From the IMG/VR virus record IMGVR_UViG_3300025896_000027: DNA of 20,000 nt. One strand, written 5' to 3'. The DNA comes from an uncultured virus (IMG/VR IMGVR_UViG_3300025896_000027). Lineage: Duplodnaviria > Heunggongvirae > Uroviricota > Caudoviricetes > Schitoviridae. The notes below the pieces were generated by a model that saw only the letters and a program-made list of their open reading frames with translations, made no database searches and was not told the origin of the DNA. Below are positions 1 through 13,647 of this stretch, piece by piece. The number at the start of each line of letters is the position of its first letter. The stretch's first letter is position 1. The position numbers and the translations under genes are program-made.

Positions 1-13
1 CTCTTCTACTCAC

Positions 14-1960
14 TTAGAGAATTTCGCAAACTCCAGCACTACAGGCAAGTTCTCGCACACTGACAGTTTCATCAGTACGTTCGAAGTCACTCAAGGCTTG
101 CCAGTTGAAAGCAGGCATCGTGGCCAGGACAGCCTCGTACTCTTCCTTCGTACATTCGGTGTATGGGGCTTGCTTATAACTGTGATTACTGTGAGGTAAG
201 AAGCTCACACCACCCAGTTGATCGAAGTTCCGATACACCCAATCACCCACACCCAGCCACTCGTGATCCTTCACATAGATCGTGACGGAGACGTTGTGTT
301 CACACCAGTTGGTTTGTACCATCAGGTAATGCTCCAACTGCTCCATGGCTGATCGGTCATTGCGAAACACTGCATGTTCCGGACCAGCTACTGGGAAGCT
401 GAAGACATCGGTGGTTGCACCTTTCAAGTAGCAGTCCTCGACAGGGAATCCTTGCTGACGCATGAGCTGTGCCAGGGGATCCTTCTTGTCGGCACGTACC
501 GTCCGGATGTAATGCTGGGCATACCGTGGATGAATGCCACTGGCACTGTCCACAAGCTGGCTCACCGTTCCCGAAGGCTTCACCGTAGTGATAGCCGTAG
601 ACTGGTTGATGCCCAGCTTCTTAGCCCACTTGGCATTGACAGCAATGGCGTGAGCCTTCATCTCCCGAAGCCATGAAGCTGCTTCCTCATTGGTTTGAGA
701 CAGGATCGGGTGATCCATGATCCCAGTGAGGGACACACCCAGCAGGCGCTCTTCTTCCTGGTTCTTCGCCCAGATCTTTCGCACGTAGCGGAAGTCGGTC
801 AACATGGATTGGTAGGTGCCCATGATGGTGGCGACACGAACCTTGTCCTTCAGATCGTCCAGGGTGTCGGTGTGACGAATGACAACTTCAGAGAGGTTGC
901 ACAGCCCTGCTGAGCGAAGCGTGATCTCGGCACAGGGGTTGGTACCTACGATCTTTGTGGGATCCCTGCGGCCACTGTCCACGGCCTTCTGGATGGCTGC
1001 TGATCGATTGAACACACCACGTTCACCAGATTTGGATTCCACAAGTGAAAGCCATTCCTTCATGAACACTTCCATCTCTGGACGTTCGGTGTATGCAGCC
1101 GAGTTGTTGGCCAGGGCACGCTGAGGCTCGCCCACCCACCATTGGCCGCTCTTGGCAGCACGCATGCGGTCATCGCTGGGGTTGCTCAGACTGATCAGAG
1201 CACTGCGGCGAACGCCTCCCACCACCACGATGTCTGCCACCTTGCAAACCAAGTCATGGCATTCAATGCTGGTGAGCTTTCGACCCACTGCATTCTTGAA
1301 GGTTTCAACGGTGAACTTGAAGAGGTCATCCAATGGTTGAGGGCCACTGGCACGGCCACCGAACACCTTGAGCTTTTCACCGGCTGGCCGGATCTTGGAC
1401 ATATCCCAGGATGGGATGTGGCCTGCGTACAGGTGATCGATCAACTCACGGAAACTGCCTGCCCAACCACCCTTGCTGTCACGCACTACGATGGTGTGAT
1501 CAATGGCTGTGAGGGCATCGACAACGCCTACCGTGGGCTTGTTGTCCTCACCAGCCAATACGGTGGCACCAACAACCGGCAGCTTGTTGACGAACTGCCG
1601 TTCGACACTGAAGCCAACGCCAGTACCACACATCAGGATGTAAAGGATTTCATCGAAAGCTCGGGTGTTGTCAACGGCTACGAACGAACAGTTGAAGCCA
1701 GCCATCGGATCACGTTCCAGTGCAGGGCCTGCGGTCATCAGGGCACGCATGGAAGGCATGGTCTTCAGGGCCAGGATGTGCTGGTAGACCTCATTGGATG
1801 GGTAGTGAGGGAACTTCTGGGCGAAGTAGTCAACGTAGCGTTTGACCGTTTCTGGCCAAGTTTCACGTCGCTGTTCGCTATCGACCCATCGAGCGTATCG
1901 GCTCTTGTGGACGAATTCCTGAAGTGGTGTGGGGAGATGGGCTACTTTGGAATGAGGCAT
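14..1960 (-). CDS. nrdJ: Class II (adenosylcobalamin-dependent) ribonucleotide reductase, monomeric RTPR-like
   Basis: 648-aa ORF with RNR motifs: PSMRALMTAG, FNCSF, GTGVGFSVE, VVVGGVRRSA, GTNPCAEI (thiyl-radical Cys), LCNLSEV, TTVKPSGTVSQL and a C-terminal Cys pair ACSAGVCEI. No ATP-cone and no intein visible. Confidence 0.95.
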   Translation of the reverse strand: MPHSKVAHLPTPLQEFVHKSRYARWVDSEQRRETWPETVKRYVDYFAQKFPHYPSNEVYQHILALKTMPSMRALMTAGPALERDPMAGFNCSFVAVDNTRAFDEILYILMCGTGVGFSVERQFVNKLPVVGATVLAGEDNKPTVGVVDALTAIDHTIVVRDSKGGWAGSFRELIDHLYAGHIPSWDMSKIRPAGEKLKVFGGRASGPQPLDDLFKFTVETFKNAVGRKLTSIECHDLVCKVADIVVVGGVRRSALISLSNPSDDRMRAAKSGQWWVGEPQRALANNSAAYTERPEMEVFMKEWLSLVESKSGERGVFNRSAAIQKAVDSGRRDPTKIVGTNPCAEITLRSAGLCNLSEVVIRHTDTLDDLKDKVRVATIMGTYQSMLTDFRYVRKIWAKNQEEERLLGVSLTGIMDHPILSQTNEEAASWLREMKAHAIAVNAKWAKKLGINQSTAITTVKPSGTVSQLVDSASGIHPRYAQHYIRTVRADKKDPLAQLMRQQGFPVEDCYLKGATTDVFSFPVAGPEHAVFRNDRSAMEQLEHYLMVQTNWCEHNVSVTIYVKDHEWLGVGDWVYRNFDQLGGVSFLPHSNHSYKQAPYTECTKEEYEAVLATMPAFNWQALSDFERTDETVSVRELACSAGVCEIL

Positions 1961-2887: not shown

Positions 2888-5800
2888 ATGTCTGGTACGT
2901 GCGGAACTGGTGGATGGGGCGGCCCGTTACCGGGGGATCCCGATAACAACTCCATCCTGACGGTGACTCCTGCCTTTGGCGGGATTGATGTTTCCTGGAC
3001 CTATCCGACAACCAATCCGTTCGCTGTAGCTCACACGGTTGTTTATCGTGGGCTAACTGACGATCCATTGGGTGCCACGATTCGGTCGATCACTGGTGGT
3101 GATCTGTTCTATGACAAGACAGACAATGAACTGTCTATCGAGTACTTCTATTGGATTAAGCACGTCTCGATCAATGGCACTCAGGGTGAAATGATCGGGC
3201 CTGCTTCGGCCATTGCCCGTCCTACCATCGAACAAACGATGGAGATGCTGGCCAACCGAATCGACACAGGAATGCTGGGTACTGCTTTGAAAGCAGACCT
3301 TGGAAAAATTACTTTGTTGGAGGGCTCTCTTTCTGAAGAAGTGGTTGCTCGTATCGCTTCACGAGATGAGCTGATCGTCGCAGTGGGTAACCTTCAAGGC
3401 ACCATTAATGAAGCCATCACGCTTGTAGAGACTGAGGTCGTAGAACGTACCAGCGATTCAGAAGCATTTGCTGCTTCTTTGAACTTGGTTGTTACTGGTT
3501 TGGGAGATTCCATTGCTGCTGTGGCAGTTGAGATGGAAGCCCTGAGCACTGACACCGCTGCTATTACATCCTGGCAAGCGGTGACGGAGGCCACCCTGAA
3601 CGGTGATGTGGCCTTGGGGGAGATCGGTCTTGTTGCCAAGGTTGAGGAACAGGCTGACAAGACAACTGCCATCGGTGCCCTTTACACGGCCAAGCTTTCA
3701 GTCAATGGTTTGATTGGTGGCTTTGGTGTCTACAACGATGGGACGCTTGTTGAAGCTGGTTTCGATGTAGACAACTTCTGGGTTGGTAGGACTGGCCCTG
3801 ACAAGGTGAAGCCATTTGTTATTGAGGGCGGTGAAGTCTTCATGGACGAAGCTGTCATCAACAAGCTGACCTTCAACAAGCTCAGGTCTGCAGACGGTAA
3901 TGTCATTGTTGAGGATGGCAAGATCAAAGCCGAGTTTCTGACTCTGGAAGGTCTTGAAGTTGTTGATGAGTTGGGCAACGTCATCTTGGGTGCTGGGGTA
4001 GATCTGGACTGGTCACGTATTGGTGGGTCCAATAAGCCAGCCGATGGAGCGACTCGTAACGTAGCCAGAGGTCTTTGGACTTCAGGCACGTTGTACCTTC
4101 CTGGAGATTCAGTATTCGAGGCGGGTTACGGCTGGTCTTGCATCTTCGAACATACCTCTTCCGGTGTGGTGACTCCACCTACTTATCCGGTGACGGAGAA
4201 CACCTACTGGGTGCTTCAAACTATTGGCGGTGCTGACGGTGCCAACGGTAGTCGTACTGCCATCTTGGACATGTACCAGTGGGCTGCTGCTGCACCCACG
4301 ACATTCCCGGTAGGCACCTCAACATACACATGGGCAACGGGGCAATTCACTGCACCCAGCACATTGAATGGCTGGTCCTTGACGCCTTCTGCTGCTGTAG
4401 CAGGGCAGACCTTGTGGACCTGTCGTACAGTGTTTGTGGATTCGCTGACCTCAGCTACTAGCTCGGTAACCTGGGCTGCTACTGTAGCCCGTGCTCAAGG
4501 TGCTGCCGGTACTCCAGGCAGTCCAGGTAGTCCGGGTACTGATGGGGCCAATGGAGCCCGCACAGCGGTTCTGGAGCTGTACAGGTGGGCTGCTGGTACC
4601 CCGGTGACTTTCCCATCGGGGTCGTCTACCTACACCTGGAATACAGGCGCTTTTACTGCACCAGCAACCCTGAATGGTTGGAGTCTGACTCCCGGTGCTG
4701 CGGTGGCTGGACAAACTCTTTGGGGATGCAGCGTCAACTATGTAGACACAGGTACGTCAGCTACTTCAGCAGTTGCTTGGAGTACTGCCACGGCATATGC
4801 CTTGGGTGCTGCAGGTACGAATGGTGCCAATACTATTCTTGGCTTGTTGTCTAATGAAGTACACACGATACCTACTGCCGCAGATGGCAGCGGTGGTGTA
4901 TTCACTGGGGCTAACACAACCCTAACCATCTATAACGGTGCTACGGATGATTCTGCAAACTGGACTTTTTCAGTTACCAAAGTCAATGTGATTTGTACGG
5001 AGAGTTCAACTAGCCGTACTCAAACAGTGACTGCGATGTCTGCAGATACCGGGTACGTGGAATTCACTGCATCACGAGCTGGCTATGTCAATATCGTGAA
5101 ACGTTTTACTCTGACTAAGAGTAAGGCAGGGATTGCTGGCAGCAATGGTCTTGATGGGATAGACGGGGATACGGGTCCAATGGGGCCTGCTGTTCAGATT
5201 ACCTCCAATCGTGCTTCAACCTTTACAGCAACGGATGGAACACTGGATATTGGTCAGTCAATCATCACGTTCACTGCTAATACCAGTGGCTTGACGTTGC
5301 CTACCTATGTATGGACATTCTCTGGTTTTGAGATTACACCTACCAACTTTGGGGTAGCCAATCAATCGGTATCTGCTGCTCAGTTTGGCACGGCTAAATC
5401 TGCCACGGTAACCTGTACGGTCAATGGCACCTATACAGATGTCATTACGATTGTTCGTCTGGAGAAGAGTACTGCTCAAGCTGGGGCTACGGTAGGTGCT
5501 CCTGCTGGTACCAATGTGGGCGGGGTACCTGTAGAGACTCTGGTGGCATCGGTAAGTGCTGCCACTACTGCTCTGACAAATAAGCTAAACAAAACAGGAG
5601 ATACGATCACTGGTCGAATTTCGCTAGGTGTTGCTGATGGCTTGTTTGTTGGTACGGATACCAACAACGGTGTCTATATGGGCAGTGGGGGCTTGGTATC
5701 TAAGAAAGCCGGGGTGACTAAGTTTGTGTTGTCCCCTACAGGGGATGCCTTGTTTGCCGGTTCATTGGATGCAGCATCTGGGACATTTGCAGGAACGCTG

Positions 5801-6244
5801 ACGGCGGCGGCGATTGAGGCCGTTGATTCGGTAAATATCAGGAATAATGCCGTGGTCATTCCTGTTGCTGCAGAATGGGCAGGCACCCTCAATAATAATT
5901 TCGGCTATGTCACAGGAACAGCATCTGTTGATAGTCGCGGCGGTGCCGTATCTATTACATGCTCCGTAACGATGAATGTGATGGGCACGAATACAGGCCC
6001 CGTCAATATCCATATATTCAGAGACGGCTATCCTGTCAAGGTTATTTCTTTTGGCGACGCCCCCCGTGGTGCTAATACATTTGGAGTTGGGAAAAAAAGC
6101 ACAGTTACTGGGGTATTTATTGACAACCCAGGCTCAGGCCCGCACAGCTATCAAATAGGCGGGACCATTTCTGACGCGAGCCTTTTCACGATAACTAAGG
6201 CTGTTATTTGTTGTGTTGTCGCCGTCAAGCTCGGCCCTATTTAA
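2888..6244 (+). CDS. Long tail fibre / host-specificity (receptor-binding) protein
   Basis: 1118 aa with SD GAGG upstream. It has an N-terminal FnIII-like segment (GGIDVSWTYP...YFYWIKHVSING), a helical/coiled region, a lambda-J/DUF1983-like segment (YTAKLSVNGLIGGFGVYN...FDVDNFWVG...PFVIEGGEVFMDEAVI), Gly-X-Y collagen-like linkers, a duplicated ~100-aa domain and a beta-rich C-terminal tip. Confidence 0.85.
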   Translation: MSGTCGTGGWGGPLPGDPDNNSILTVTPAFGGIDVSWTYPTTNPFAVAHTVVYRGLTDDPLGATIRSITGGDLFYDKTDNELSIEYFYWIKHVSINGTQGEMIGPASAIARPTIEQTMEMLANRIDTGMLGTALKADLGKITLLEGSLSEEVVARIASRDELIVAVGNLQGTINEAITLVETEVVERTSDSEAFAASLNLVVTGLGDSIAAVAVEMEALSTDTAAITSWQAVTEATLNGDVALGEIGLVAKVEEQADKTTAIGALYTAKLSVNGLIGGFGVYNDGTLVEAGFDVDNFWVGRTGPDKVKPFVIEGGEVFMDEAVINKLTFNKLRSADGNVIVEDGKIKAEFLTLEGLEVVDELGNVILGAGVDLDWSRIGGSNKPADGATRNVARGLWTSGTLYLPGDSVFEAGYGWSCIFEHTSSGVVTPPTYPVTENTYWVLQTIGGADGANGSRTAILDMYQWAAAAPTTFPVGTSTYTWATGQFTAPSTLNGWSLTPSAAVAGQTLWTCRTVFVDSLTSATSSVTWAATVARAQGAAGTPGSPGSPGTDGANGARTAVLELYRWAAGTPVTFPSGSSTYTWNTGAFTAPATLNGWSLTPGAAVAGQTLWGCSVNYVDTGTSATSAVAWSTATAYALGAAGTNGANTILGLLSNEVHTIPTAADGSGGVFTGANTTLTIYNGATDDSANWTFSVTKVNVICTESSTSRTQTVTAMSADTGYVEFTASRAGYVNIVKRFTLTKSKAGIAGSNGLDGIDGDTGPMGPAVQITSNRASTFTATDGTLDIGQSIITFTANTSGLTLPTYVWTFSGFEITPTNFGVANQSVSAAQFGTAKSATVTCTVNGTYTDVITIVRLEKSTAQAGATVGAPAGTNVGGVPVETLVASVSAATTALTNKLNKTGDTITGRISLGVADGLFVGTDTNNGVYMGSGGLVSKKAGVTKFVLSPTGDALFAGSLDAASGTFAGTLTAAAIEAVDSVNIRNNAVVIPVAAEWAGTLNNNFGYVTGTASVDSRGGAVSITCSVTMNVMGTNTGPVNIHIFRDGYPVKVISFGDAPRGANTFGVGKKSTVTGVFIDNPGSGPHSYQIGGTISDASLFTITKAVICCVVAVKLGPI
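4229..4825 (+). repeat. Tandem duplication of a ~100-aa domain (period 306 nt) within the tail fibre
   Basis: Copy 1 (from 4229): GADGANGSRTAILDMYQWAAAAPTTFPVGTSTYTWATGQFTAPSTLNGWSLTPSAAVAGQTLW. Copy 2 (from 4535): GTDGANGARTAVLELYRWAAGTPVTFPSGSSTYTWNTGAFTAPATLNGWSLTPGAAVAGQTLW. Confidence 0.93.
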
Positions 6245-6253
6245 AAAAACATC

Positions 6254-6838
6254 ATGATCAAAGTTTGCTACTTCACCCAAGCCGACGGACAGGTGTTTTC
6301 AGCCCTCACCGGCCCGTCGCTGGAGGGTATGCCAGAGGCACCGCCCGGTCAGCTTGCAACCCTCACAGATTACAGCGGCCCTCTACCGGCCTACTGGAAT
6401 GGTGAATCGGTCCAAGCAATCCCAGATCAGCCCTCCACTGCACATGTCTGGAACTGGGCCACCAAGCAGTGGATACACAGCCTGACTGAAGCCAGGGTTC
6501 AAGCATGGGACCGTATCAAGGCATCCAGGGATGCTGCTGAGTTCGGCACTTTCACCTGGAATGGTCATGTCTTTGATGGTGATTCAGAGAGTCAACGAAG
6601 GATCCAAGGTGCTGCTCAATTGGCTATTCTGGCTCAAGCCATGGGACAGCCTTTCAGCATTGATTGGACATTAGCGAACAACGCCCAAGTAGCACTGTCT
6701 GCTTCTGACATGGTGGGTGTAGGTAGTGCATTGGGGCAGAAGGTAAGTTCTGTACATGGCACTGCCAGAGGTCTTCGTGAGGTTATTCAAGAAGCACTCA
6801 CTCAGAATCAACTGGATGCAATCCAGTGGCCTAGTTAA
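6254..6838 (+). CDS. DUF4376-like tail-fibre-associated/assembly protein
   Basis: 194 aa directly after the fibre, with QPSTAHVWNWATKQW, WDRIKASRDAAE, FDGDSESQRRIQGA, IDWTLANN and the C-terminus LDAIQWP, typical of DUF4376/tail fibre assembly proteins. Confidence 0.8.
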   Translation: MIKVCYFTQADGQVFSALTGPSLEGMPEAPPGQLATLTDYSGPLPAYWNGESVQAIPDQPSTAHVWNWATKQWIHSLTEARVQAWDRIKASRDAAEFGTFTWNGHVFDGDSESQRRIQGAAQLAILAQAMGQPFSIDWTLANNAQVALSASDMVGVGSALGQKVSSVHGTARGLREVIQEALTQNQLDAIQWPS

Positions 6839-6929
6839 GTTAAATCCGAGATGACATCCTCTATGCACTTACAAAGCTGATAGAGTGCATGCCATCAAGA
6901 ATTGTTTACGCATACACCAAAGGTGCATC

Positions 6930-7247
6930 ATGAAACGTACTGCCCCCATCCTTCAATCCAACGTCACCAAAGCTGAAGCGGGTCTTTGGCATGAGACGGG
7001 GGGTTTTGTTCATTCAGTTGAAGCCATGTTGGCTCCTGGTGCCACGGCTGCTGTGATTGACATCTATGGCAGTAACTTGGGCAAAGGTAAGGGAGTGAAG
7101 TTCGCCACCATTACCTTGTCTGCTGACACTCCTACTGATGGCTTCACTGCTGGCATTCGTGCAGATGGCTGGATGTATGTTCGCTCTACAGTTGTGTCTA
7201 ACACAGGGACTGTTGAAGCAATCGCAGCTTGTGTTGGACAGGAGTAA
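6930..7247 (+). CDS. Small beta-rich hypothetical protein (105 aa), possible spike/fibre adaptor
   Basis: ATG at 6930 with SD-like AAGGTG is preferred over the ORF-track start at 6885. Alternating beta-strand pattern (VIDIYGSN, TITLS, DGF, WMYVRSTVV). Adaptor role is inference. Confidence 0.65.
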   Translation: MKRTAPILQSNVTKAEAGLWHETGGFVHSVEAMLAPGATAAVIDIYGSNLGKGKGVKFATITLSADTPTDGFTAGIRADGWMYVRSTVVSNTGTVEAIAACVGQE

Positions 7248-7249
7248 TC

Positions 7250-7831
7250 ATGTCAGTAACCATCATCGATAAGCAGTTACCTCAGCCTGTTGGCACCTCT
7301 GGCGCGGAGTTCGTGCCTGGGGATGCGGGATCACCCTGGGTATTCGCTGCCTCCAGCTTTGGAACCAAACGCGTCGGCGATGGCACTGCGGATACTGCGA
7401 CACCTGCGGTCATGATCCCTGCCGATGTGGTGATTCCTCCAGGCATTCTGACTGTCGGCACCTGTGTTGAAATCTATTGGGAGATTACGCACACGACGGC
7501 CAGTGGCAACTTCGATCCTGTGGTTTACCCAGTGCTGTCGTCCTACCCGAACAGCTTGGGGTGCGATGGCCTGCGGATTCAGCCTGGTGGTGCAGCCACG
7601 GAGCGTGGCGGCTCCGGACTGCTGCGGTTCGTCGTCGATACCCCAGCGAGCCAGCACATTCTGGCGAACCCGGCAAACCTGGGGGACACGGGCAACCCGC
7701 CGCAGAAGACGACTTGGGATGTCCTGAACAACGGGCTGAACATCAACCTCGTCAGCGAATTCCCTGCCAACGCCCCCGCTTCAGAGTCTGTGACGCTGAA
7801 GTATTACTCCATCACCATCGTGAAGGCCTGA
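7250..7831 (+). CDS. Hypothetical beta-rich virion-associated protein (193 aa)
   Basis: ATG at 7250 with strong SD AGGAG. Beta-rich. N-terminus MSVTIIDKQLPQP resembles that of the 9497 protein. Confidence 0.7.
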   Translation: MSVTIIDKQLPQPVGTSGAEFVPGDAGSPWVFAASSFGTKRVGDGTADTATPAVMIPADVVIPPGILTVGTCVEIYWEITHTTASGNFDPVVYPVLSSYPNSLGCDGLRIQPGGAATERGGSGLLRFVVDTPASQHILANPANLGDTGNPPQKTTWDVLNNGLNINLVSEFPANAPASESVTLKYYSITIVKA

Positions 7832-7832
7832 C

Positions 7833-9290
7833 ATGCCAGATTACAACGCAATTCTTTCTGGGGGCGGTCTTCGCCCAGATACGGTCGTTGACCTCTCCAA
7901 AGTCGTCGGCCAAACGTGGACAGACGGCACAAGTTTCGCCGTGCCGACGGAGGCAGATCAGTTTCTGTCCAACCAACCTGCGGTGCTGGGGATCGTGGAG
8001 ATCCTAAAGTCCAACGCGACCCCGGTCACGGTTACTGATCGCTTTTTCGGCGGTCACGTGAACCCAGACGGATCGGCTCTGGACAAGTACCCTGCGAAGA
8101 TCAAATATCTACGCAGTGTTGACTTCGATCCTGCTGACACCGGGGTGTTCGTCTGGCGTGATATTCAGCCAACAGGCAGTGGTCCTGGTGATGGCGGTCC
8201 CTTTGTGTGGGATGTCGTTGATCGGTACTTGCAGGTCTGCAAGGATCGTGACTTGATCCCGTACATCTGCCTGCATTGCCCGCCTGACTGGGCCGTGGCG
8301 AGCCAAGATTGGGCGCAGGGGGAAGTCATCGGTACCGTCGGCGTCGTTCGTAAACGTGGGTCGTACTACTACACCGCGATCACAACCGGAACTTGTGGAG
8401 CTACCTCGCCGACACACACAGGTGTGTCACCTAGTCCCATTGACGCGTCTGATGGTGGTGTTACTTGGCGTTCGGCTGCTCTGGCTCAGTCTGGTTATGG
8501 CGGCAAGGCCAACCTGCCGTCCACGTTCTCGTCGGACCTGTATATCTACGCGCTTGCAGTCGCTGATCGGGTGAAGAACGTCCACGGCATTACCGAGGCT
8601 GTTTTCGAGCCACTGAACGAAGTGAACCTGCTTGTGCACTGGGCAGGTACAGACGCACAGATGGCAGAGGCTGTACGGCAGGTCTACAACGCAGTCGCCC
8701 CACTTGGCTTCCAAGTCCACGCCCCGAATCTCTGGTTCGGTGGGTCTGTCACGGATGCAGAGTACACAACCATCGTTGACAACTACATCACTATGCTGAA
8801 CACGGTGGTGGTGGGTAATGCGATGTGGAAGTATTGCCAAGGCTTTGGCATCCATACCTACAGTCTGACGCCCGCGAACGTGCGCGACCTGCACCGGGGT
8901 GTGCTGCTGTTGAAATCCCGTATCAACAGTGCGCTGATAGGCAACAACACCCTGGGCACCAGCCGCAACGCCATGCCGATCTTCGACAATGAGCACGGAA
9001 CGAACGGTTGCCCCTGCAAGGCTGCTGCAATCATGCAGCGTTTGGTGATCTTGGCGGGCCTACGCATCAACGCCAGCTTCTACTACGCCATCAATTCGAC
9101 AGATGGTACTGGGCCGAGTCTGGGCCTGGGCAAGTACACCGCCGACTGGAACCGTATCCAGGAGATCCTGCTCAGTGGCCCACTGACGGTGGTCAACATC
9201 CTGCCAAACGGCTCGGTGGCATTCGTGGTCGGCGGCAAGCAGTACCGCATTGATTGGGTTGAAGATAACCCACTTGTTGCATTGACTTAA
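7833..9290 (+). CDS. Clan GH-A glycoside hydrolase (GH39/GH5-like TIM barrel), putative polysaccharide depolymerase
   Basis: 485 aa. Motifs in the order expected for clan GH-A: WRDIQP...FVWDVVDRYL...PPDWA, FEPLNEVN (acid/base Glu, codon 8619-8621), GFGIHTY, PIFDNEHG (nucleophile Glu, codon 8991-8993). Confidence 0.75.
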   Translation: MPDYNAILSGGGLRPDTVVDLSKVVGQTWTDGTSFAVPTEADQFLSNQPAVLGIVEILKSNATPVTVTDRFFGGHVNPDGSALDKYPAKIKYLRSVDFDPADTGVFVWRDIQPTGSGPGDGGPFVWDVVDRYLQVCKDRDLIPYICLHCPPDWAVASQDWAQGEVIGTVGVVRKRGSYYYTAITTGTCGATSPTHTGVSPSPIDASDGGVTWRSAALAQSGYGGKANLPSTFSSDLYIYALAVADRVKNVHGITEAVFEPLNEVNLLVHWAGTDAQMAEAVRQVYNAVAPLGFQVHAPNLWFGGSVTDAEYTTIVDNYITMLNTVVVGNAMWKYCQGFGIHTYSLTPANVRDLHRGVLLLKSRINSALIGNNTLGTSRNAMPIFDNEHGTNGCPCKAAAIMQRLVILAGLRINASFYYAINSTDGTGPSLGLGKYTADWNRIQEILLSGPLTVVNILPNGSVAFVVGGKQYRIDWVEDNPLVALT

Positions 9291-9485
9291 GTAGCCCACC
9301 CAGGCCACATGATTCAAGCACTCACCTGAAAGCCCAACCATGGAACTCTCACTCTCCACCGCCATCGGCCGCAACACCCTGCACTTGGGTCTGACGGGCT
9401 CATCTTAAGTCGTGGCCGGACCCACTGCCGCCTATGAGCAGGGGGCCGTCCTACCAGTAATGCAATACACATGGCTTGCCATGTT

Positions 9486-11488
9486 GAGGTACCCATATGC
9501 CCGTTATTCGTATCGATAAAAAACTGAACCAGCCTGGTAGTCATGGTTCAGATGTGCTCCCTATCAGTGAGTGCCTAAAGGATCTGACAGGCACCATCAA
9601 TCAGCGAGATCAGCTTGAAGCAGCAATGGTTATGTGTGCCTCTACGGGCGACACATTGCTGATTGATGTTCCTGTCTTGGTCGATACGACTGTGCTTGAA
9701 GAGATCTGGGTTCCTACTGGCTTGACTATGGAGTGGGCACCGAAGGGGGAGATTCGCATTCGCAACAACTATCGCCCTGGGATTGTCTTTCTCAACACCA
9801 AGGTGAAACTGCAACAGCCAAAATTTGTGTACATTGGTCCAGGTCTGGATGCTGGCATCAGCCCTCTGGCTGGAGAGCCTTTGGCTACGACAATGGCAGT
9901 CAACGTGCGACTGAAAAACCGCTTGGCCAGTCAGTACAACGTGACGTTCAACGACAATATGGATCCGATGTGGTATGGCCCCAACGTTTTCCACGCCACA
10001 ATTTTGTTGTTGGGTGCGACAGAGATTGACTTCAGTGGTGATTTCAGCGTTCACGCGCCCGCCGGTGTGGCTGCATCTACTTTCTGCCCTTACGGCATCA
10101 CAGCCAAGGGGCAATGGAAAACGAATTCGGTCATTGGGGCCGGGGCCGATATAACTTTGGTAGATTGGCCGATCCTTCGTGGTGACCGCATCTCCTTTGA
10201 TGGGGTGCTGATGGGCATTCAAGGCTCACTCAAACACCTCAAACTCAAAGAGCTGCACTCCAAGCGTTACAGCGACATGATGGGAGCCAATGGAACCAAC
10301 ATGGGCGGTGTTTCTTTATTCTATCCACCCCCTCATTTGATTTACTTAAATGATGGCACTGGCTTGGTTCAGATCGATAACGTCAAGGATGAGGGTGTGT
10401 GGGTAACGACACATGCAGATCCTTCGGTGCGTCGGTCTTCTGCAAGTGGTAACTGCAACTCTTTGAAATTCATGGCAGGCCCAGGCTCCTACATAGGGCA
10501 TGTGCACTGCCTTCGTCCAGACGGCATGATGGACGCCATTGGCGGTGTTACGACCTCAGGTTTCACCATCAATAGCTTTTACGCCGAATACAACAGCAAC
10601 CTCTCCGATGGTTTGTTCCCTTGTGTACGTTGGCCTAATGGCCCATACGTTGGAACAAAGCTGCTGAGTGGCAAGATCGTTGATACGGCTGCTAAGACCA
10701 AAGCTAGGCCTATTGGTTTCAACACGAATGTTAGCAATCGTCGTGTGACGATCAAGAATGTGGAGTACGTGCTCAATGATATTGAACCTAACTACTCTCA
10801 AAGCACCTGGCTTGCCGGAGCTGAGCATGACATTGATGTGACCTTTCGCATCCTGGCTCACACTGCTACAGATGAGTACAAGGGGGTTATCGTTGTTGAA
10901 GGAGGCTCTGCTAACAGTCCAATTGCATCCAGACTGAAAGCCACTGTCATTGGTTGGCGTAACTGGTTTTCGAACTTGAATCTCCGAAATCGGATGATCA
11001 TCAATGGCACGATTAGCGGCAGTACTGCTGGTGCTACTACGGCTGAGATTAACGACCTCACCAATGGCTATACGGTAAAGCAAGACGGCGGATTCAGGCG
11101 TGAACGCTGGACCATGAAGGGTATTGCATCAGCACCTAATGGTGCCTCTGTTGCCCTGACTGCTGTCAAGATCCCTGCTAACTGGACGGTGGTTGAGACT
11201 GCTGTGGCTACGAAGACGGCTCTAGGTGCTACGACAGGATGCACGGGCTATACCGTAGGCTGGTCTGGAACTCCTGCAGGCATTGGCACTGTGGTGGGTG
11301 TGACAACCGCTGGCCGTATCGTCAATAAGACTGAGGTTACTTCTGCTGGTTCAGATCGAGCCATTGTTATCACCCCTACGGGTGGTAACTTCGATGGCAC
11401 TGGTTTGATAGAAGTTAACATCACCTGTGAAAACATTGTGTTTGGCGAATAAACTCGCACCATATCCATAGAGGTACCTATATGCCCG
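9486..11488 (+). repeat. 18-bp near-perfect direct repeat at two consecutive gene starts (9486-9503 and 11471-11488)
   Basis: GAGGTACCCATATGCCCG vs GAGGTACCTATATGCCCG, 17 of 18 identical. Each copy spans SD, spacer, ATG and the following codon. Confidence 0.85.
9497..11452 (+). CDS. Putative tailspike-like (right-handed beta-helix) protein
   Basis: 651 aa with SD GAGGT. An N-terminal capping pattern (QLEAAMVMCASTGDTLLIDVPV) is followed by long Gly/Asn-rich beta-strand runs and a ~100-aa Thr/Gly-rich C-terminal beta domain. Fold is inferred from composition and context. Confidence 0.6.
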   Translation: MPVIRIDKKLNQPGSHGSDVLPISECLKDLTGTINQRDQLEAAMVMCASTGDTLLIDVPVLVDTTVLEEIWVPTGLTMEWAPKGEIRIRNNYRPGIVFLNTKVKLQQPKFVYIGPGLDAGISPLAGEPLATTMAVNVRLKNRLASQYNVTFNDNMDPMWYGPNVFHATILLLGATEIDFSGDFSVHAPAGVAASTFCPYGITAKGQWKTNSVIGAGADITLVDWPILRGDRISFDGVLMGIQGSLKHLKLKELHSKRYSDMMGANGTNMGGVSLFYPPPHLIYLNDGTGLVQIDNVKDEGVWVTTHADPSVRRSSASGNCNSLKFMAGPGSYIGHVHCLRPDGMMDAIGGVTTSGFTINSFYAEYNSNLSDGLFPCVRWPNGPYVGTKLLSGKIVDTAAKTKARPIGFNTNVSNRRVTIKNVEYVLNDIEPNYSQSTWLAGAEHDIDVTFRILAHTATDEYKGVIVVEGGSANSPIASRLKATVIGWRNWFSNLNLRNRMIINGTISGSTAGATTAEINDLTNGYTVKQDGGFRRERWTMKGIASAPNGASVALTAVKIPANWTVVETAVATKTALGATTGCTGYTVGWSGTPAGIGTVVGVTTAGRIVNKTEVTSAGSDRAIVITPTGGNFDGTGLIEVNITCENIVFGE

Positions 11489-11757
11489 CAAACGATTTCC
11501 TCACTCGCTTGAAGAGTGATCTCGCCGGTCCTTCTGCAAGCTTTGAAGCAGTTGTCCCACACAACACAACCAACCTCACTGTTCCTACTCGTGGTTTGTT
11601 CATTGGGGTTGCTGGGAATGTCTCGGTTGTTCCATTGGCTTCACCAAGCACATCAGTGGTTTTCAAGAATGTGGCTGCAGGAAGTGTTCTTCCTGTGGCT
11701 GCTCTTCGTGTCAATGCAACCGGAACAACTGCCACGGATATCGTGGCGTTGTACTAA
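11482..11757 (+). CDS. Head-spike base protein, RcGTA Rcc01079-like family
   Basis: 91 aa matching the recalled family pattern: GPSASFEAVVP...PTRGLFIGVAGNVSV...VVFKNVAAGSVLPVAALRVNATGTTATDIVALY. Confidence 0.85.
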   Translation: MPANDFLTRLKSDLAGPSASFEAVVPHNTTNLTVPTRGLFIGVAGNVSVVPLASPSTSVVFKNVAAGSVLPVAALRVNATGTTATDIVALY

Positions 11758-11759
11758 TC

Positions 11760-13130
11760 ATGGCAATGGGTATCTCAATTGGGCTTAGCTTCACAGCCAT
11801 CGCTGCCGCTGCGGGGGCGGGTGGGGGTCCGCCTGTCACGATCACGGCAACCGGGACCGAGTTCCTGGCCGCTGCGTCCGCGTCGTATCGGGTCACGGCT
11901 GGGAAACTGTATTTGCAAGCCTCGGTGGGCGCAAACTTCTCGGCGTTCACGTTCTTGGTCAAGGGTTCTGATGCCTCCCTGACCATGCAGAACGATGCGG
12001 CGTACTATGACGGAGCCGTGGTGGTTTCTGTTGATGGTGGGGCGTACAGCGTTGCCGCCAATACGGGAGCCGTCTACACCCTGTTCTCCGGCTTGACAGA
12101 CGCATGGCACAAGGTCTCGATCAAAACTGGTGGCATCTGGGGTGCCAACAATCTCCACTTGGTCCCGGCTGCTGCGGTGTTGTCTGTCACGGGTGTTGGT
12201 GCTGGATGGCTGGCACCTAACGCTTGGCTGCATTCTGGCGATGTCAACGCCCTTATCCACACGACCGGCGCGTTGACCGACAACGTGACTGACTACGTGC
12301 CAGCTAAAGCATTGGGCGAGCCCGTCGCATCAACATCAAACGTAGGAACAATTCGATTCCGCTCGGCAGCTACCAAGTTGTTCTTGTTCGCTACAAGTTC
12401 TTTCTCCACAGCTTACGTTTTCTACTCCCGCAATGGCGGAACTCCGGTGCGTATTGCTGTGCCGGGGAACGGTACTGTGGTGGAAGGGTTCGACGGTACA
12501 GCAGCCACCTACAACGTGTGGTCGAACTCAGGTCGGTTCCTCTCTGTTGGCTCTGACGCTGCAATTGTCGATGTCGGCACCAAAAAACGGATGGACCAGT
12601 TCGGTGATTCGATCACCGCAGGTGATTCTGGCGCTGGTGCGGCTGATCAAAATCGGGGGGATGTGGACACGCTCGGTGTTGCCTCCGCCCTGGGCTTTGC
12701 AGGGGCGACTTATGGCCTCAGCGGTCAGACCATTGCAACACTCAAAACCAACATCGTCACCACACTGGCAGCGCTCCCGGCGGCTGGTTCTTTGGATGTG
12801 GCAGTTCTTGCTATTGGGCGCAACAACCTAGTCGATAGCATGGATGCCACCGAACAATCGGACTTCAACATCATTGTTGATGCACTGGTTGCCAAGGGGT
12901 ATGGCCGGGTTATCTGTCGCGGGGTGCTGCCAGAGGCTTTCCCGTTCACGGCATTTAATTCAGTGATGGAGGGCTTGGTCACTGCGCGTGCTGACTCCAA
13001 GGTGGTCTACGTCAACACGAACTCGTGGGCAGGCATCGCAACCGGCGATGGCACTCACCCAACCATCGCAGGCTACGCAACGATCCGAGGCTACGCCATC
13101 CCAGCCTACACGCCGCACATCCCATCATGA
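11760..13130 (+). CDS. Putative head fibre with C-terminal SGNH/GDSL hydrolase (esterase) domain
   Basis: 456 aa starting 2 nt after the spike-base stop. N-terminus MAMGISIGLSF followed by an Ala/Gly linker. SGNH blocks: I FGDSIT (Ser codon 12609-12611), II GLSG, III GRNN, V DGTHP. Confidence 0.82.
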   Translation: MAMGISIGLSFTAIAAAAGAGGGPPVTITATGTEFLAAASASYRVTAGKLYLQASVGANFSAFTFLVKGSDASLTMQNDAAYYDGAVVVSVDGGAYSVAANTGAVYTLFSGLTDAWHKVSIKTGGIWGANNLHLVPAAAVLSVTGVGAGWLAPNAWLHSGDVNALIHTTGALTDNVTDYVPAKALGEPVASTSNVGTIRFRSAATKLFLFATSSFSTAYVFYSRNGGTPVRIAVPGNGTVVEGFDGTAATYNVWSNSGRFLSVGSDAAIVDVGTKKRMDQFGDSITAGDSGAGAADQNRGDVDTLGVASALGFAGATYGLSGQTIATLKTNIVTTLAALPAAGSLDVAVLAIGRNNLVDSMDATEQSDFNIIVDALVAKGYGRVICRGVLPEAFPFTAFNSVMEGLVTARADSKVVYVNTNSWAGIATGDGTHPTIAGYATIRGYAIPAYTPHIPS

Positions 13131-13462
13131 CCCGCCACCTCCCCACCCTAGCCCTGGCCTGCGCTGTGATGAGTGTGCAGGCTGCACCGTGTCTGCCAAG
13201 GCAGCTTGGCGGCACAGGTACGGCTGCCCTTGTGGCATCACCTCCTGCTGGGACGTTCGCTGCATGGCGGTGCGGTTCTCAGACGGTTGTGGTGGCCTGC
13301 GTCACGCGAGAGTGCGGGCTTGTCGGTGCAAAGCGTGCCGTGGCTGCTTGGATGTCCAATCCAGATCCATCAAAGCTGACGTTCGGTAAGGATCCTCATA
13401 CCGATCCAGCTTTGATGGCTGTATGGAAGCCATATGAAACACAGATCAAGGCTCTCAAATGA
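13127..13462 (+). CDS. Small Cys-containing protein with Sec-type signal peptide (111 aa)
   Basis: ATGA overlap with the SGNH gene stop. MTRHLPTLALACAVMSVQA-AP resembles a signal peptide with a V-Q-A cleavage site, and the mature part has 4 Cys. Confidence 0.65.
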   Translation: MTRHLPTLALACAVMSVQAAPCLPRQLGGTGTAALVASPPAGTFAAWRCGSQTVVVACVTRECGLVGAKRAVAAWMSNPDPSKLTFGKDPHTDPALMAVWKPYETQIKALK

Positions 13463-13647
13463 AACAGATCAATCCTGATCTGGAGCAAATGCTCCGTCCT
13501 ATGCCAGTATCAGACGCATTCCGACAAAAGATTGCAGATGAGGTCTGGAAAGGACAACAAGCTCTTTATGAAGCTGGCTTGCTTGACCGATATTGCCGAT
13601 GGATCCCCAAGCCAACAGAGATTCCTAAGGCAGCATCACCAATCTGA
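13459..13647 (+). CDS. Hypothetical protein (62 aa)
   Basis: ATGA overlap with the upstream gene and an AAGG SD-like element. No recognised motif. Confidence 0.55.
   Translation: MKQINPDLEQMLRPMPVSDAFRQKIADEVWKGQQALYEAGLLDRYCRWIPKPTEIPKAASPI

Follow-up and report, generated by a model that had tools for sequence, protein, structure and literature searches.

A candidate mosaic island of virion-surface glycan-active proteins, with two proposed plug-and-socket modules, in an N4-like phage

An N4-like phage, represented here by 20,000 nucleotides of an uncultured virus assigned to the Schitoviridae (IMG/VR record IMGVR_UViG_3300025896_000027; hereafter the window), appears to have picked up by horizontal transfer, between its tail fibre and its lysis genes, a mosaic of glycan-active proteins of the virion surface, arranged as two plug-and-socket modules. 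We put the probability of this reading at roughly 0.55. The set comprises six genes, gpA to gpF, all lying where the initial annotation of this DNA had placed them (Table 1). The reading builds on homology, folds, peptide conservation, gene coupling, and the swapping of modules between phages, each of them observed directly, and we think it probable that several sugar-modifying enzymes are displayed on the particle.

Table 1. Features of the island and its surroundings (positions in the window; residues given for parts of proteins)
Feature	Positions (nt)	Residues	Strand	Description
Main tail fibre	2888-6244		+	1118 aa; phrog_496, E 4.7e-62
DUF4376 tail protein	6254-6838		+	194 aa; PF14301, E 2.5e-21; phrog_2837 'tail protein', E 1.7e-23
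Six-gene island	6930-13130		+	gpA-gpF, between tail fibre and lysis genes
gpA	6930-7247		+	105 aa; all-beta jellyroll (model), proposed socket/adaptor of module 1
gpB	7250-7831		+	193 aa; N-terminal peptide and beta-sandwich head
gpB N-terminal peptide	7250-7333	1-28	+	disordered
gpB beta-sandwich head		29-193	+	TNF/C1q-like matches
gpC	7833-9290		+	485 aa; probable clan GH-A (TIM-barrel) glycosidase
Direct repeat, copy 1	9486-9503		+	18 nt; spans gpD ribosome-binding site, ATG, and first codons
gpD	9497-11452		+	651 aa; predicted 'pectate-lyase'-type spike
gpD N-terminal peptide	9497-9562	1-22	+	as in gpB
Direct repeat, copy 2	11471-11488		+	18 nt; at gpE start
gpE	11482-11757		+	91 aa; predicted head spike base, Rcc01079 family
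gpF	11760-13130		+	456 aa; predicted head fibre with SGNH esterase payload
gpF plug peptide	11760-11792	1-11	+	five hydrophobic residues alternating with small ones
gpF SGNH esterase domain	12600-13079	281-440	+	Pfam GDSL matches

Judged by its sequence, the gpE/gpF pair of module 2 is a genuine head spike of the gene-transfer-agent type and adds a member to a kind already known. gpE passes the NCBIfam model NF048002 ('spike base protein, RCAP_Rcc01079 family') with a score of 81.9 bits (cutoff 28; E 3e-23; profile positions 7-85 of 85), matches phrog_12296 (E 2.7e-18), and is homologous to two solved spike bases, both jellyrolls: PDB 8cjz_h, 'Spike Base Protein' (E 7e-9), and 6tb9, 'Head spike base Rcc01079' (E 4.8e-5). 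The 92-residue 8cjz chain is, to judge from name and length alone, gp40 of the Cobetia phage Carin1 (GenBank PQ119497), which is annotated as 'head spike base protein; structurally identified and validated'. In RcGTA, the Rcc01079 base sits on capsid pentamers (PMC7296036).

The gene that follows gpE fits this assignment. Residues 1-11 of gpF satisfy both the 4x and the 5x alternating patterns and are followed by an Ala/Gly linker; the alternation resembles that of Carin1 gp39 and P8625 gp24 as well as the alternating hydrophobic and small residues at positions 2-10 of Rcc01080 (PMC7296036). The middle part is beta-rich, with a weak CE2_N-like match. The C-terminal part bears out the SGNH esterase claimed for this cluster, as it matches PF00657 above the cutoff (24.9 bits, cutoff 23.6) and PF13472 just below it (32.3, cutoff 32.9), and has blocks I, II, III, and V complete (GDS 282-284, G322, N355, D430, and H433); the enzyme is thus predicted to be intact and looks active. 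Homology of the gpF body to Rcc01080 was not found in a PDB sequence search at E values up to 10, and it is not needed for a plug mechanism, since fibre bodies differ in general.

Plug peptides of this sort recur behind gpE relatives. Among the best 80 of 435 IMG/VR relatives, the strict 4x motif occurs in the gene after the base in 20 cases, or about 14 distinct sequences (counting genes that start -45 to +75 nt from the base stop, with the motif within the first 14 residues), compared with 27 of 1688 background ORFs, in which the fibres themselves are counted; for a relaxed motif the figures are 26/80 and 151/3313. The payloads behind the motif range from 82 to 976 aa. Seven of 22 scanned motif fibres have a Pfam match (Laminin_G_3 three times, F5/8 type C, GLEYA/PA14, Gly_rich_2, and a weak Ig), and an SGNH domain was found in none of these 22 other fibres. 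On a T7-type contig (L092/L093), a base homologue is followed by a GDSL protein with a gpF-like N terminus and an Ala/Gly linker. With a curated family, two solved bases, and a recurrent plug peptide in front of varied payloads, the RcGTA-type reading proposed earlier for this gene pair holds up well. We consider it very likely that gpE is a base on the capsid vertices with a gpF esterase fibre plugged into it. A gpE pentamer would form a base of the RcGTA/Carin1 type, a single gpF molecule would plug into it via its first ~11 residues, and the linker would keep the esterase off the capsid, so that the head of the particle could de-O-acetylate or transiently bind host surface polysaccharide.

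The surroundings of the island point to an N4-like lineage. The N-terminal ~360 residues of the main tail fibre are, by sequence, a Schitoviridae-type virion anchor: residues 17-358/390 share 43-44% identity with tail fibres of Pseudomonas N4-like phages, and residues 2-356 match PDB 9ze4_N (E 1e-93). Family-typical genes elsewhere in the window include rIIA/rIIB, class II RNR, and ThyX, and relatives of the rIIB gene lie on contigs of 70-78 kb; the virion RNA polymerase that is the hallmark of the Schitoviridae is absent from the window, as is any capsid gene of the phage. An M15 endolysin gene and a spanin-like gene lie 3' of the island. The window shares only the rIIA/rIIB genes and a portion of its tail fibre with N4-like relatives; the island is not shared. 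Neither the gpA family nor the gpE family was found in five complete or near-complete (97-100%) N4-like relatives, with positive controls in place, so the island is not core to the lineage. A megablast search of positions 6200-13500 against 50,697 phage records found no close DNA relatives. The window has a block in common with a T7-type phage, where gpB, gpC, base, and esterase genes lie behind the terminase.

Within the island, gpA and gpB, like gpE and gpF, are separated by 2 nt, and gpC starts 1 nt past gpB. The two copies of a direct repeat, identical at 17 of 18 positions, together flank the gpD cassette; a 14-mer occurs twice exactly where 0.13 matches are expected by chance. A 22-codon ORF at 9340-9408 that resembles a plug peptide was rejected as a gene, since its sequence overlaps a short repeated copy of DNA from within gpC, and is read as a recombination relic. 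Promoter and terminator candidates between 2700 and 15600 were no more numerous than in shuffled sequence.

Module 1 begins with gpA, for which the AlphaFold2 model (pLDDT 92.5) predicts an all-beta protein of seven strands. Together with the homology of gpE to jellyroll bases, this vindicates the description of the two small genes as beta-rich. The suggested kinship of gpA with Rcc01079 fared differently and is rejected at the sequence level (BLASTP E 0.76; hhalign probability 0.2%); no Rcc01079-type or spike-base entry appears among the 50 entries listed in either VIA-align fold search, although a distant likeness of fold may still exist. The best match of the model in those searches is instead to the fold of YomS and the XepA C-terminal domain, at 15-20% identity. 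Pfam XepA (PF27453) matches none of the 14 gpA-family members at E values up to 1, and a XepA-bearing cluster stands among the ESM Atlas neighbours of gpA with a score of only 0.83. We place gpA in an unnamed family that has the fold of YomS and XepA, which are pentameric; gpA is probably an oligomeric ring. Sequence and profile searches of the PDB returned only designed repeat proteins, via one short word; tblastn searches for the family in phages were without match, and searches of IMG/VR (single proteins or query A3) and of JGI metagenomes (A3) returned nothing. Two candidate homologues were dropped: L091, a 29-residue word match in a bacterial ATPase-like gene, and gp92 (107 aa) of phCDa, a Pseudomonas N4-like phage, which occupies the same position after the tail fibre (BLASTP E 0.05; hhalign 0.2%).

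The gpA homologues P0004, P0006, P0010, P0011, P0012, and P0140 lie on contigs of 17-57 kb. gpA homologues also occur in virion modules of other podophages, where the order is portal, scaffold, PF13252 capsid protein, SU10-adaptor-like protein, phrog_437 protein, gpA homologue, and esterase, with a phrog_496 tail fibre further on. In four of four distinct contexts (L090, L095, L096, and L097, the last equivalent to L098 and L099), an esterase gene starts 2-3 nt after the gpA homologue, three of these esterases being called by profile and the fourth from its GDSL motif by eye. The gpA homologues of L095 and L097 are 71% identical, and the esterases behind them (529 and 691 aa) are alike only in residues 1-20, where 10 of 20 positions are identical; none of 2114 background N termini reaches their score of 53.

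Within the island, the N termini of gpB and gpD share 11 identities over 23 residues (Smith-Waterman score 45), a score attained by none of 2054 background ORF N termini and none of 20000 shuffles, and BLASTP detects no further similarity between the two proteins, whose bodies are unrelated. The corresponding DNA is identical at only 37 of 66 positions, and different codons are used at 5 of the 11 identical residues, which points to a peptide under selection rather than a recent DNA copy. The distinctive N-terminal peptides noted earlier are therefore real, here and in gpF with its alternation and linker. The N termini that follow gpA homologues in L090, L095, L096, and L097 score just 11-21 against the gpB/gpD peptide, values equalled by 90 to 1901 background N termini; no plug motif therefore runs through the whole family, and the co-variation of gpA with its peptide rests on few cases.

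The bodies behind these peptides differ in how well they can be placed. gpB has a weak model (pLDDT 61), no profile match in the PDB, and, like gpC, no match in phage records. Its body is 81-95% identical in five relatives that bear three other N termini; in L092-L094 the variant is located after the terminase, in a record (72% complete) without gpA. In L092/L093 the gpB homologue is followed by a gene with 67% identity to gpC. The ten best family-bearing feature neighbours of gpC in the ESM Atlas are all of GH5/GH39/GH42/GH10 type, as are its structure neighbours (TM 0.60-0.65 by query), and candidate Asn-Glu motifs can be picked out by eye in the translation; Pfam and NCBIfam gave no match. 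The GH-A assignment of the initial annotation is probable from the Atlas neighbours. As for its beta-helix-like spike, residues 32-644 of gpD match phrog_11548, 'pectate lyase', at E 1.2e-56 (profile positions 165-774 of 780), and the protein is 24-26% identical to proteins of 28 Cellulophaga phage records that are annotated as structural protein or pectate lyase, in alignments that all begin at about residue 30 or later. Pfam and the PDB gave no sequence match for gpD, which is predicted to be a beta-helix depolymerase of the 'pectate-lyase' type.

These observations suggest that gpA may be a second socket, holding the conserved 23-residue peptide of gpB and gpD. gpB would then be a short fibre with a TNF/C1q-like head and would probably bring along the co-translated gpC, which has no peptide of its own. 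We advance the gpA ring as socket for this peptide tentatively, at slightly under even odds. The proposal of gpA as a second adaptor has indirect support, in that its family directly precedes peptide-tagged enzymes, two of which are alike in their N-terminal 20 residues only; its supposed resemblance to Rcc01079 does not stand. The expected swapping of payloads in relatives is seen behind gpE-type plugs, between L095 and L097, and in the N-terminus variants of gpB, but a common plug motif for the partners of gpA is not. Oligomeric states, protein-protein contacts, presence in the virion, the position of module 1 on head or tail, and substrates are what we infer from this material.

gpA would have no place on the capsid pentons if these are occupied by gpE. 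In relatives, the gpA gene comes after adaptor-like and probable tail-tube genes, and those Schitoviridae esterases whose position has been located are on the tail (PMC11654681), so module 1 may belong to the tail. A rival reading, which we regard as less likely, makes gpB and gpD tail appendages: their peptide would dock directly on the adaptor, on the tail tube, or on the N-terminal portion of the tail fibre, in the manner of the multi-tailspike podophages G7C, Moo19, and B2, and gpA would be an assembly factor, or a small tail or decoration protein in its own right, rather than the socket. Such docking leaves unexplained why gpA-family genes always lie 2-3 nt from a peptide-bearing gene and why gpB has a different N terminus where no gpA lies upstream, and a peptide of 20-28 residues is short compared with the tail-modelled N-terminal parts of the Moo19 and B2 tailspikes (residues 10-74; PMC11654681). 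It is also conceivable, if improbable, that gpA-gpD, or some of them, stay outside the virion as soluble late proteins freed at lysis, either depolymerases or XepA-like lysis helpers, with a common N terminus that serves expression, folding, or targeting. The XepA gene lies between tail-fibre and lysis genes, as gpA does, which would count for this idea. XepA is, moreover, described as a lytic-cassette protein seen during maturation and missing from the mature phage, although YomS by itself has no lytic activity (PMC6834076). Against soluble proteins, neither gpA nor the gpB/gpD peptide looks like a signal sequence by eye in the translations, and the gpA family is located within head-tail structural modules of other phages. 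Swapping of N termini on a conserved body, as in gpB, is in addition the usual mark of virion anchoring in phage receptor-binding proteins.

For module 2, the rival view is that gpF is an esterase tailspike carried on the tail, like G7C gp63.1, with gpE a tail or fibre accessory rather than a capsid protein. PHROG and several GenBank records do label gpE homologues 'tail fiber protein', and N4-like phages typically carry esterase tailspikes (PMC11654681). These labels, however, trace to similarity-based annotation (PMC5026251), both solved gpE homologues were deposited as spike base proteins, and the RcGTA and Carin1 bases described above belong to the head. gpF itself has no sequence match to G7C gp63.1 (4QNL) or any other PDB chain at E values up to 10, and no detectable sequence similarity to the esterase tailspikes of G7C, Moo19, and B2. 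We therefore give a tail-borne gpF very little credence and retain the head spike.

Comparison with known systems shows what would be new here. In the RcGTA head spike (Rcc01079 pentamer and Rcc01080 fibre; PDB 6TB9/6TBA/6TSU/6TUI; PMC7296036) and in Carin1 gp40/gp39, whose bases are sequence homologues of gpE, the next gene likewise lies 2 nt on and encodes five hydrophobic residues spaced by small ones, with the payload behind a flexible linker. Unlike these, the particle is an N4-like podophage rather than a gene transfer agent or small podophage, gpF bears an SGNH esterase where the RcGTA fibre is lectin-like (PMC10218006), and a capsid location that was seen for the RcGTA base (PMC7296036) is deduced for gpE. 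YomS of SPbeta and the C-terminal domain of XepA of PBSX (PDB 6I5O/6I56; PMC6834076) have the fold of gpA; they are pentamers, a state that gpA may share. Coupling to peptide-tagged glycan enzymes, as for gpA, is not known for them, and the nearest phage relatives of gpA that were found infect Gram-negative bacteria, unlike the YomS/XepA setting.

The spikes G7C gp63.1/gp66, Moo19 gp82, and B2 gp48/gp49 come from the same virus family type as the window phage and, like the proposed gpE/gpF, are virion-borne SGNH-type esterases acting on surface polysaccharide, in two-protein complexes with N-terminal anchoring; they are trimeric tail appendages with an anchor of tens of residues (PMC11654681), whereas gpF follows a homologue of a capsid spike base. 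The HFTV1 turret, a gp30 hexamer base with a gp31 trimer head bearing a carbohydrate-binding module and a deacetylase/esterase-like domain, resembles the proposed gpE/gpF as a two-protein capsid projection with proposed glycan modification during adsorption, but it belongs to an archaeal virus, stands on hexamers, is built of unrelated proteins, and has no short plug peptide (PMC12494034). The PRD1 vertex (P31 penton jellyroll and P5 trimeric spike with a TNF-like head; PDB 1YQ5/1YQ8) is that of a tailless membrane-containing virus, unlike here, and the matches of the weak gpB model to PRD1-type heads are tied and middling, with no sequence similarity.

GTA-type head spikes have so far, to our knowledge, been lectin-like adhesins. 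An esterase-tipped head spike would, if true, place a receptor-modifying enzyme on the capsid in a family with esterases known only from the tail. The gpA family, for its part, ties a solved fold of unknown function, that of YomS and XepA, to a testable role as docking base for peptide-tagged enzymes. A more far-reaching and rather doubtful version of this idea is that gpA and its homologues form a new class of virion socket, a ring-forming jellyroll that captures a ~20-residue peptide and so holds interchangeable esterases, glycosidases, and lectin heads, and that the phage runs two orthogonal systems, of gpA type and GTA type, with at least four glycan-active proteins besides the tail fibre and with modules traded with T7-type phages as ready-made cassettes. 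If short peptides suffice for attachment, they would be natural tags with which to load chosen proteins on phage particles, and they would explain how depolymerase cassettes are traded across phage families.

The minus strand of the window carries genes for class II ribonucleotide reductase, ThyX, rIIB, and rIIA, and a single plus-strand block runs from a tail fiber and a DUF4376 tail protein through six genes (gpA to gpF) to the lysis genes, which encode an M15 endolysin and a spanin-like protein. The initial annotation had drawn a gene cluster between the tail fiber and the lysis genes, and all six genes were recovered at the positions given, separated by gaps of 2 nt (A-B), 1 nt (B-C), 206 nt (C-D), 29 nt (D-E), and 2 nt (E-F). 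The source is an N4-like phage. Over its first ~360 residues, the tail fiber is 43 to 44% identical to Pseudomonas Schitoviridae tail fibers, and this part matches a solved 429-residue fiber chain (9ze4_N; E = 1e-93). Five IMG/VR contigs of 70 to 78 kb encode relatives of rIIB (41 to 64% identity). A search of 50,697 phage records gave no close relative at the DNA level. At residues ~450 to 640 of the tail fiber, a ~90-residue segment occurs in two tandem copies; both copies end in a short Gly-X-Y run of the collagen type, and another such run lies near residue 760.

Genes of the plus-strand block and the related block in three IMG/VR loci
Feature	Location	Strand	Product
Tail fiber	2888-6244	+	
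DUF4376 tail protein	6254-6838	+	
gpA	6930-7247	+	105 aa
gpB	7250-7831	+	193 aa
gpC	7833-9290	+	485 aa
gpD	9497-11452	+	651 aa
gpE	11482-11757	+	91 aa
gpF	11760-13130	+	456 aa
Terminase-adjacent gpB-gpC-base-GDSL-lysozyme block	L092 1675-6376; L093 1-4282; L094 3672-4271		

We put the probability that gpE and gpF form an RcGTA-type head spike at about 85%. In the description of RcGTA that we draw on, the spike is a Rcc01079 pentamer on the capsid penton plus one Rcc01080 molecule, and the plug, an alternating hydrophobic/small N-terminal peptide, takes a five-point star arrangement in five hydrophobic pockets (PMC7296036). This reading, already offered by the initial annotation, is well supported by the score of gpE against NCBIfam NF048002 ("spike base protein, RCAP_Rcc01079 family"; 81.9 bits, cutoff 28), by its matches to two solved bases (8cjz_h, "Spike Base Protein," E = 7e-9; 6tb9, "Head spike base Rcc01079," E = 4.8e-5), and by gpF residues 1 to 11, which show the same alternation as the RcGTA plug and have an Ala/Gly linker behind them. 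Carin1 gp39 and Verrucomicrobia phage P8625 gp24, each encoded directly behind the base, start in the same style. Homologues of gpE occur in 78 phage records (tblastn), among them gp40 of Cobetia phage Carin1, annotated [quoted passage not shown]; it has 92 residues, the length of the 8cjz chain, and we infer that it is the protein of that chain. A literature search found no publication on Carin1 gp40. In Rhizobium phage RHph_Y25, a spike-base homologue (L002 4986-5638; 35% identity) lies just upstream of a 130-aa gene and the large terminase gene, with no plug-bearing fiber after it.

The payload of this probable spike is a predicted esterase: gpF has GDSL matches in Pfam and complete catalytic blocks (GDS 282-284, Gly322, Asn355, Asp430, and His433). 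Relatives of its body in Pseudomonas phages phiK7A1 and Lebethron and Nitrincola phage 1M3-16 (28 to 37% identity) all align only past gpF residue 42 and have different N-termini, and no base gene lay upstream in the two regions inspected. On this reading, the pair belongs to a known kind of head spike; its enzymatic payload and the virus family are unusual. Literature searches gave no paper on a head spike that bears an esterase; among published structures, the capsid turret of HFTV1, the head of which is described as deacetylase-like, comes closest (PMC12494034).

The link between plug and base extends to other phages. An IMG/VR scan with the gpE-family alignment gave 435 relatives, the best 80 of which were analyzed for a gene starting −45 to +75 nt from the base stop and bearing a strict four-fold alternating motif within its first 14 residues. 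Such a gene follows the base in 20 of these best 80 (~14 distinct sequences), against a background of 27 in 1,688 ORFs of at least 100 aa in the same loci, the fibers themselves counted in; with a relaxed motif, the figures were 26 of 80 and 151 of 3,313. The remaining loci have other neighbors, some with a gap of at least 130 nt to the next long ORF. The bodies that follow the motif are 82 to 976 aa long, and Pfam matched 7 of the 22 scanned (three Laminin_G_3, F5/8 type C, GLEYA/PA14, Gly_rich_2, and a weak Ig), with an SGNH domain in none of the 22. Because the bodies vary behind the motif, the payload swapping anticipated by the initial annotation is borne out as real for gpE-family spikes. 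At four loci (L023 5206-5454, L024 542-790, L071 4201-4449, and L076 5206-5454), the post-base gene is just 82 aa and encodes little beyond a Gly-rich stretch and the plug motif; its product may be either a mini "plug" protein or a fiber that has been split.

The cluster looks mosaic in origin. The gpA and gpE families are both absent from five N4-like relatives that are 97 to 100% complete, and positive controls found the families where expected (3/3 and 2/2, respectively); the segment between rIIB and the tail fiber differs in all five. An 18-nt direct repeat (9486-9503 and 11471-11488; 17/18 identical) brackets the whole gpD gene, each copy spanning the ribosome-binding site, ATG, and first codons, of gpD in one case and of gpE in the other. 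Since a T7-type relative has the matching junction without gpD, these repeats fit the insertion of gpD as a cassette, with the repeat as the insertion or exchange junction. The gap at 9291-9496 contains a 22-codon ORF (9340-9408) with a faintly plug-peptide-like start; it overlaps an 18-nt repeat of a gpC-internal stretch (8937-8954 versus 9364-9381; 83%) and is for that reason probably the relic of a recombined gene.

The gpB body recurs in five environmental proteins (81 to 95% identity) behind N-termini of three other kinds, about 50 to 95 residues long. In three IMG/VR loci, one of these gpB variants directly follows a T7-type terminase; behind it come a homologue of gpC (67% identity), a homologue of the spike base, a GDSL protein that resembles gpF in its N-terminus and linker, and a lysozyme. 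The gpB-gpC-base-GDSL cassette is common to two unrelated podophage types. This block lacks gpA and gpD, and a gpA-family profile search of the 31-kb record that holds it (72% complete) gave no match. No profile matched gpC. In the ESM Atlas, it falls among GH5/GH39/GH42/GH10-type clusters both by features, with one clan common to all ten best matches that have a family, and by predicted structure (TM, 0.60 to 0.65). Its sole PDB sequence match pairs a short insertion (residues ~150 to 215) with a segment of a cyanophage tailspike receptor-binding domain (7eea; E = 8.1e-5), and this insertion in the putative TIM barrel may be a small carbohydrate-binding hairpin. Because gpC lacks the shared peptide and is kept together with gpB in two phage types, we infer that gpB carries it. 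The gpD body (residues 32 to 644) aligns with phrog_11548, "pectate lyase," starting at profile position 165, and, from residue ~30 or later, with proteins in 28 Cellulophaga phage records that carry the labels structural protein, tail protein, or pectate lyase; in gpD, too, the alignments indicate that a longer N-terminal part is replaced by a short peptide.

BLASTP finds no similarity between gpB and gpD. Their first 23 residues align with 11 identities and one gap, a score of 45 that was reached by 0 of 2,054 ORF N-termini from the fetched loci and 0 of 20,000 shuffles. The peptide-coding DNA is identical at 37 of 66 positions, and different codons encode 5 of the 11 identical residues; this points to conservation of the peptide itself and speaks against a recent duplication. 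An AF2 model of gpB (six-sequence alignment; pLDDT 61.1, pTM 0.62) has residues 1 to 28 disordered and a beta-sandwich at 29 to 193.

The proposed socket for this peptide is gpA, which has no family assignment in Pfam, PHROG, or NCBIfam. A word search gave just two near-identical relatives, and HMMER, run in full against 1.84 billion representatives, retrieved 15 matches at E ≤ 0.001; the family alignment comprises gpA and 13 matches of 100 to 124 aa, two long proteins (P0016 and P0017) being excluded. The AF2 model of gpA is confident (pLDDT 92.5, pTM 0.84, seven strands). By fold, it best matches YomS and XepA, which PMC6834076 describes as pentamers of unknown function, discussing docking on five-fold capsid vertices and comparing them with PRD1 penton P31. 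Lower, tied fold matches include capsid cement/decoration jellyrolls (KHP40, BPP-1, and Agrobacterium phage 7-7-1), nucleoplasmin pentamers, and SUN-domain trimers. A 107-aa gene of the Pseudomonas N4-like phage phCDa (gp92; L004 6928-7251), in the same place directly after the tail fiber, was rejected as a counterpart, having no detectable relation to gpA.

Homologues of gpA in five IMG/VR loci represent three distinct contexts (subset alignment), and a short JGI contig (L090) makes four. The upstream order is portal, scaffold-like, PF13252 capsid protein, 152-aa protein, SU10-adaptor-like, phrog_437 structural protein, and gpA homologue; an esterase of 424 to 691 aa begins 2 to 3 nt farther on, followed by a sigma factor, an internal virion protein, and a phrog_496 tail fiber. 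The esterase calls come from PF13472/PF00657 in L097, a weak PF13472 match in L095, phrog_8480 in L096 (E = 5.6e-62), and, as sole support for the cut gene of L090, a GDSL motif seen by eye. The gpA homologues of L095 and L097 are 71% identical, and their esterases have just residues 1 to 20 in common (10/20 identical; BLASTP E = 0.007), with a Smith-Waterman score of 53 reached by 0 of 2,114 background N-termini.

The second adaptor system of the initial annotation is plausible. A peptide common to otherwise dissimilar proteins speaks for it; the likening of gpA to Rcc01079 fell at the sequence level, the two profiles being unrelated (hhalign probability, 0.2%), and the N-termini behind the gpA homologues in L090, L095, L096, and L097 bear no significant likeness to the gpB/gpD peptide (scores, 11 to 21). 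We rate a role of gpA as second adaptor slightly below even odds. For its site, the tail is at least as likely as the capsid, since in the relatives the gpA gene adjoins adaptor-like genes and the location given for Schitoviridae esterases in PMC11654681 is the tail; if the pentons are taken up by gpE, gpA has to be located somewhere else. If gpA does prove to be an adaptor, this would be the more novel part of the system because it would give the YomS/XepA fold a role.
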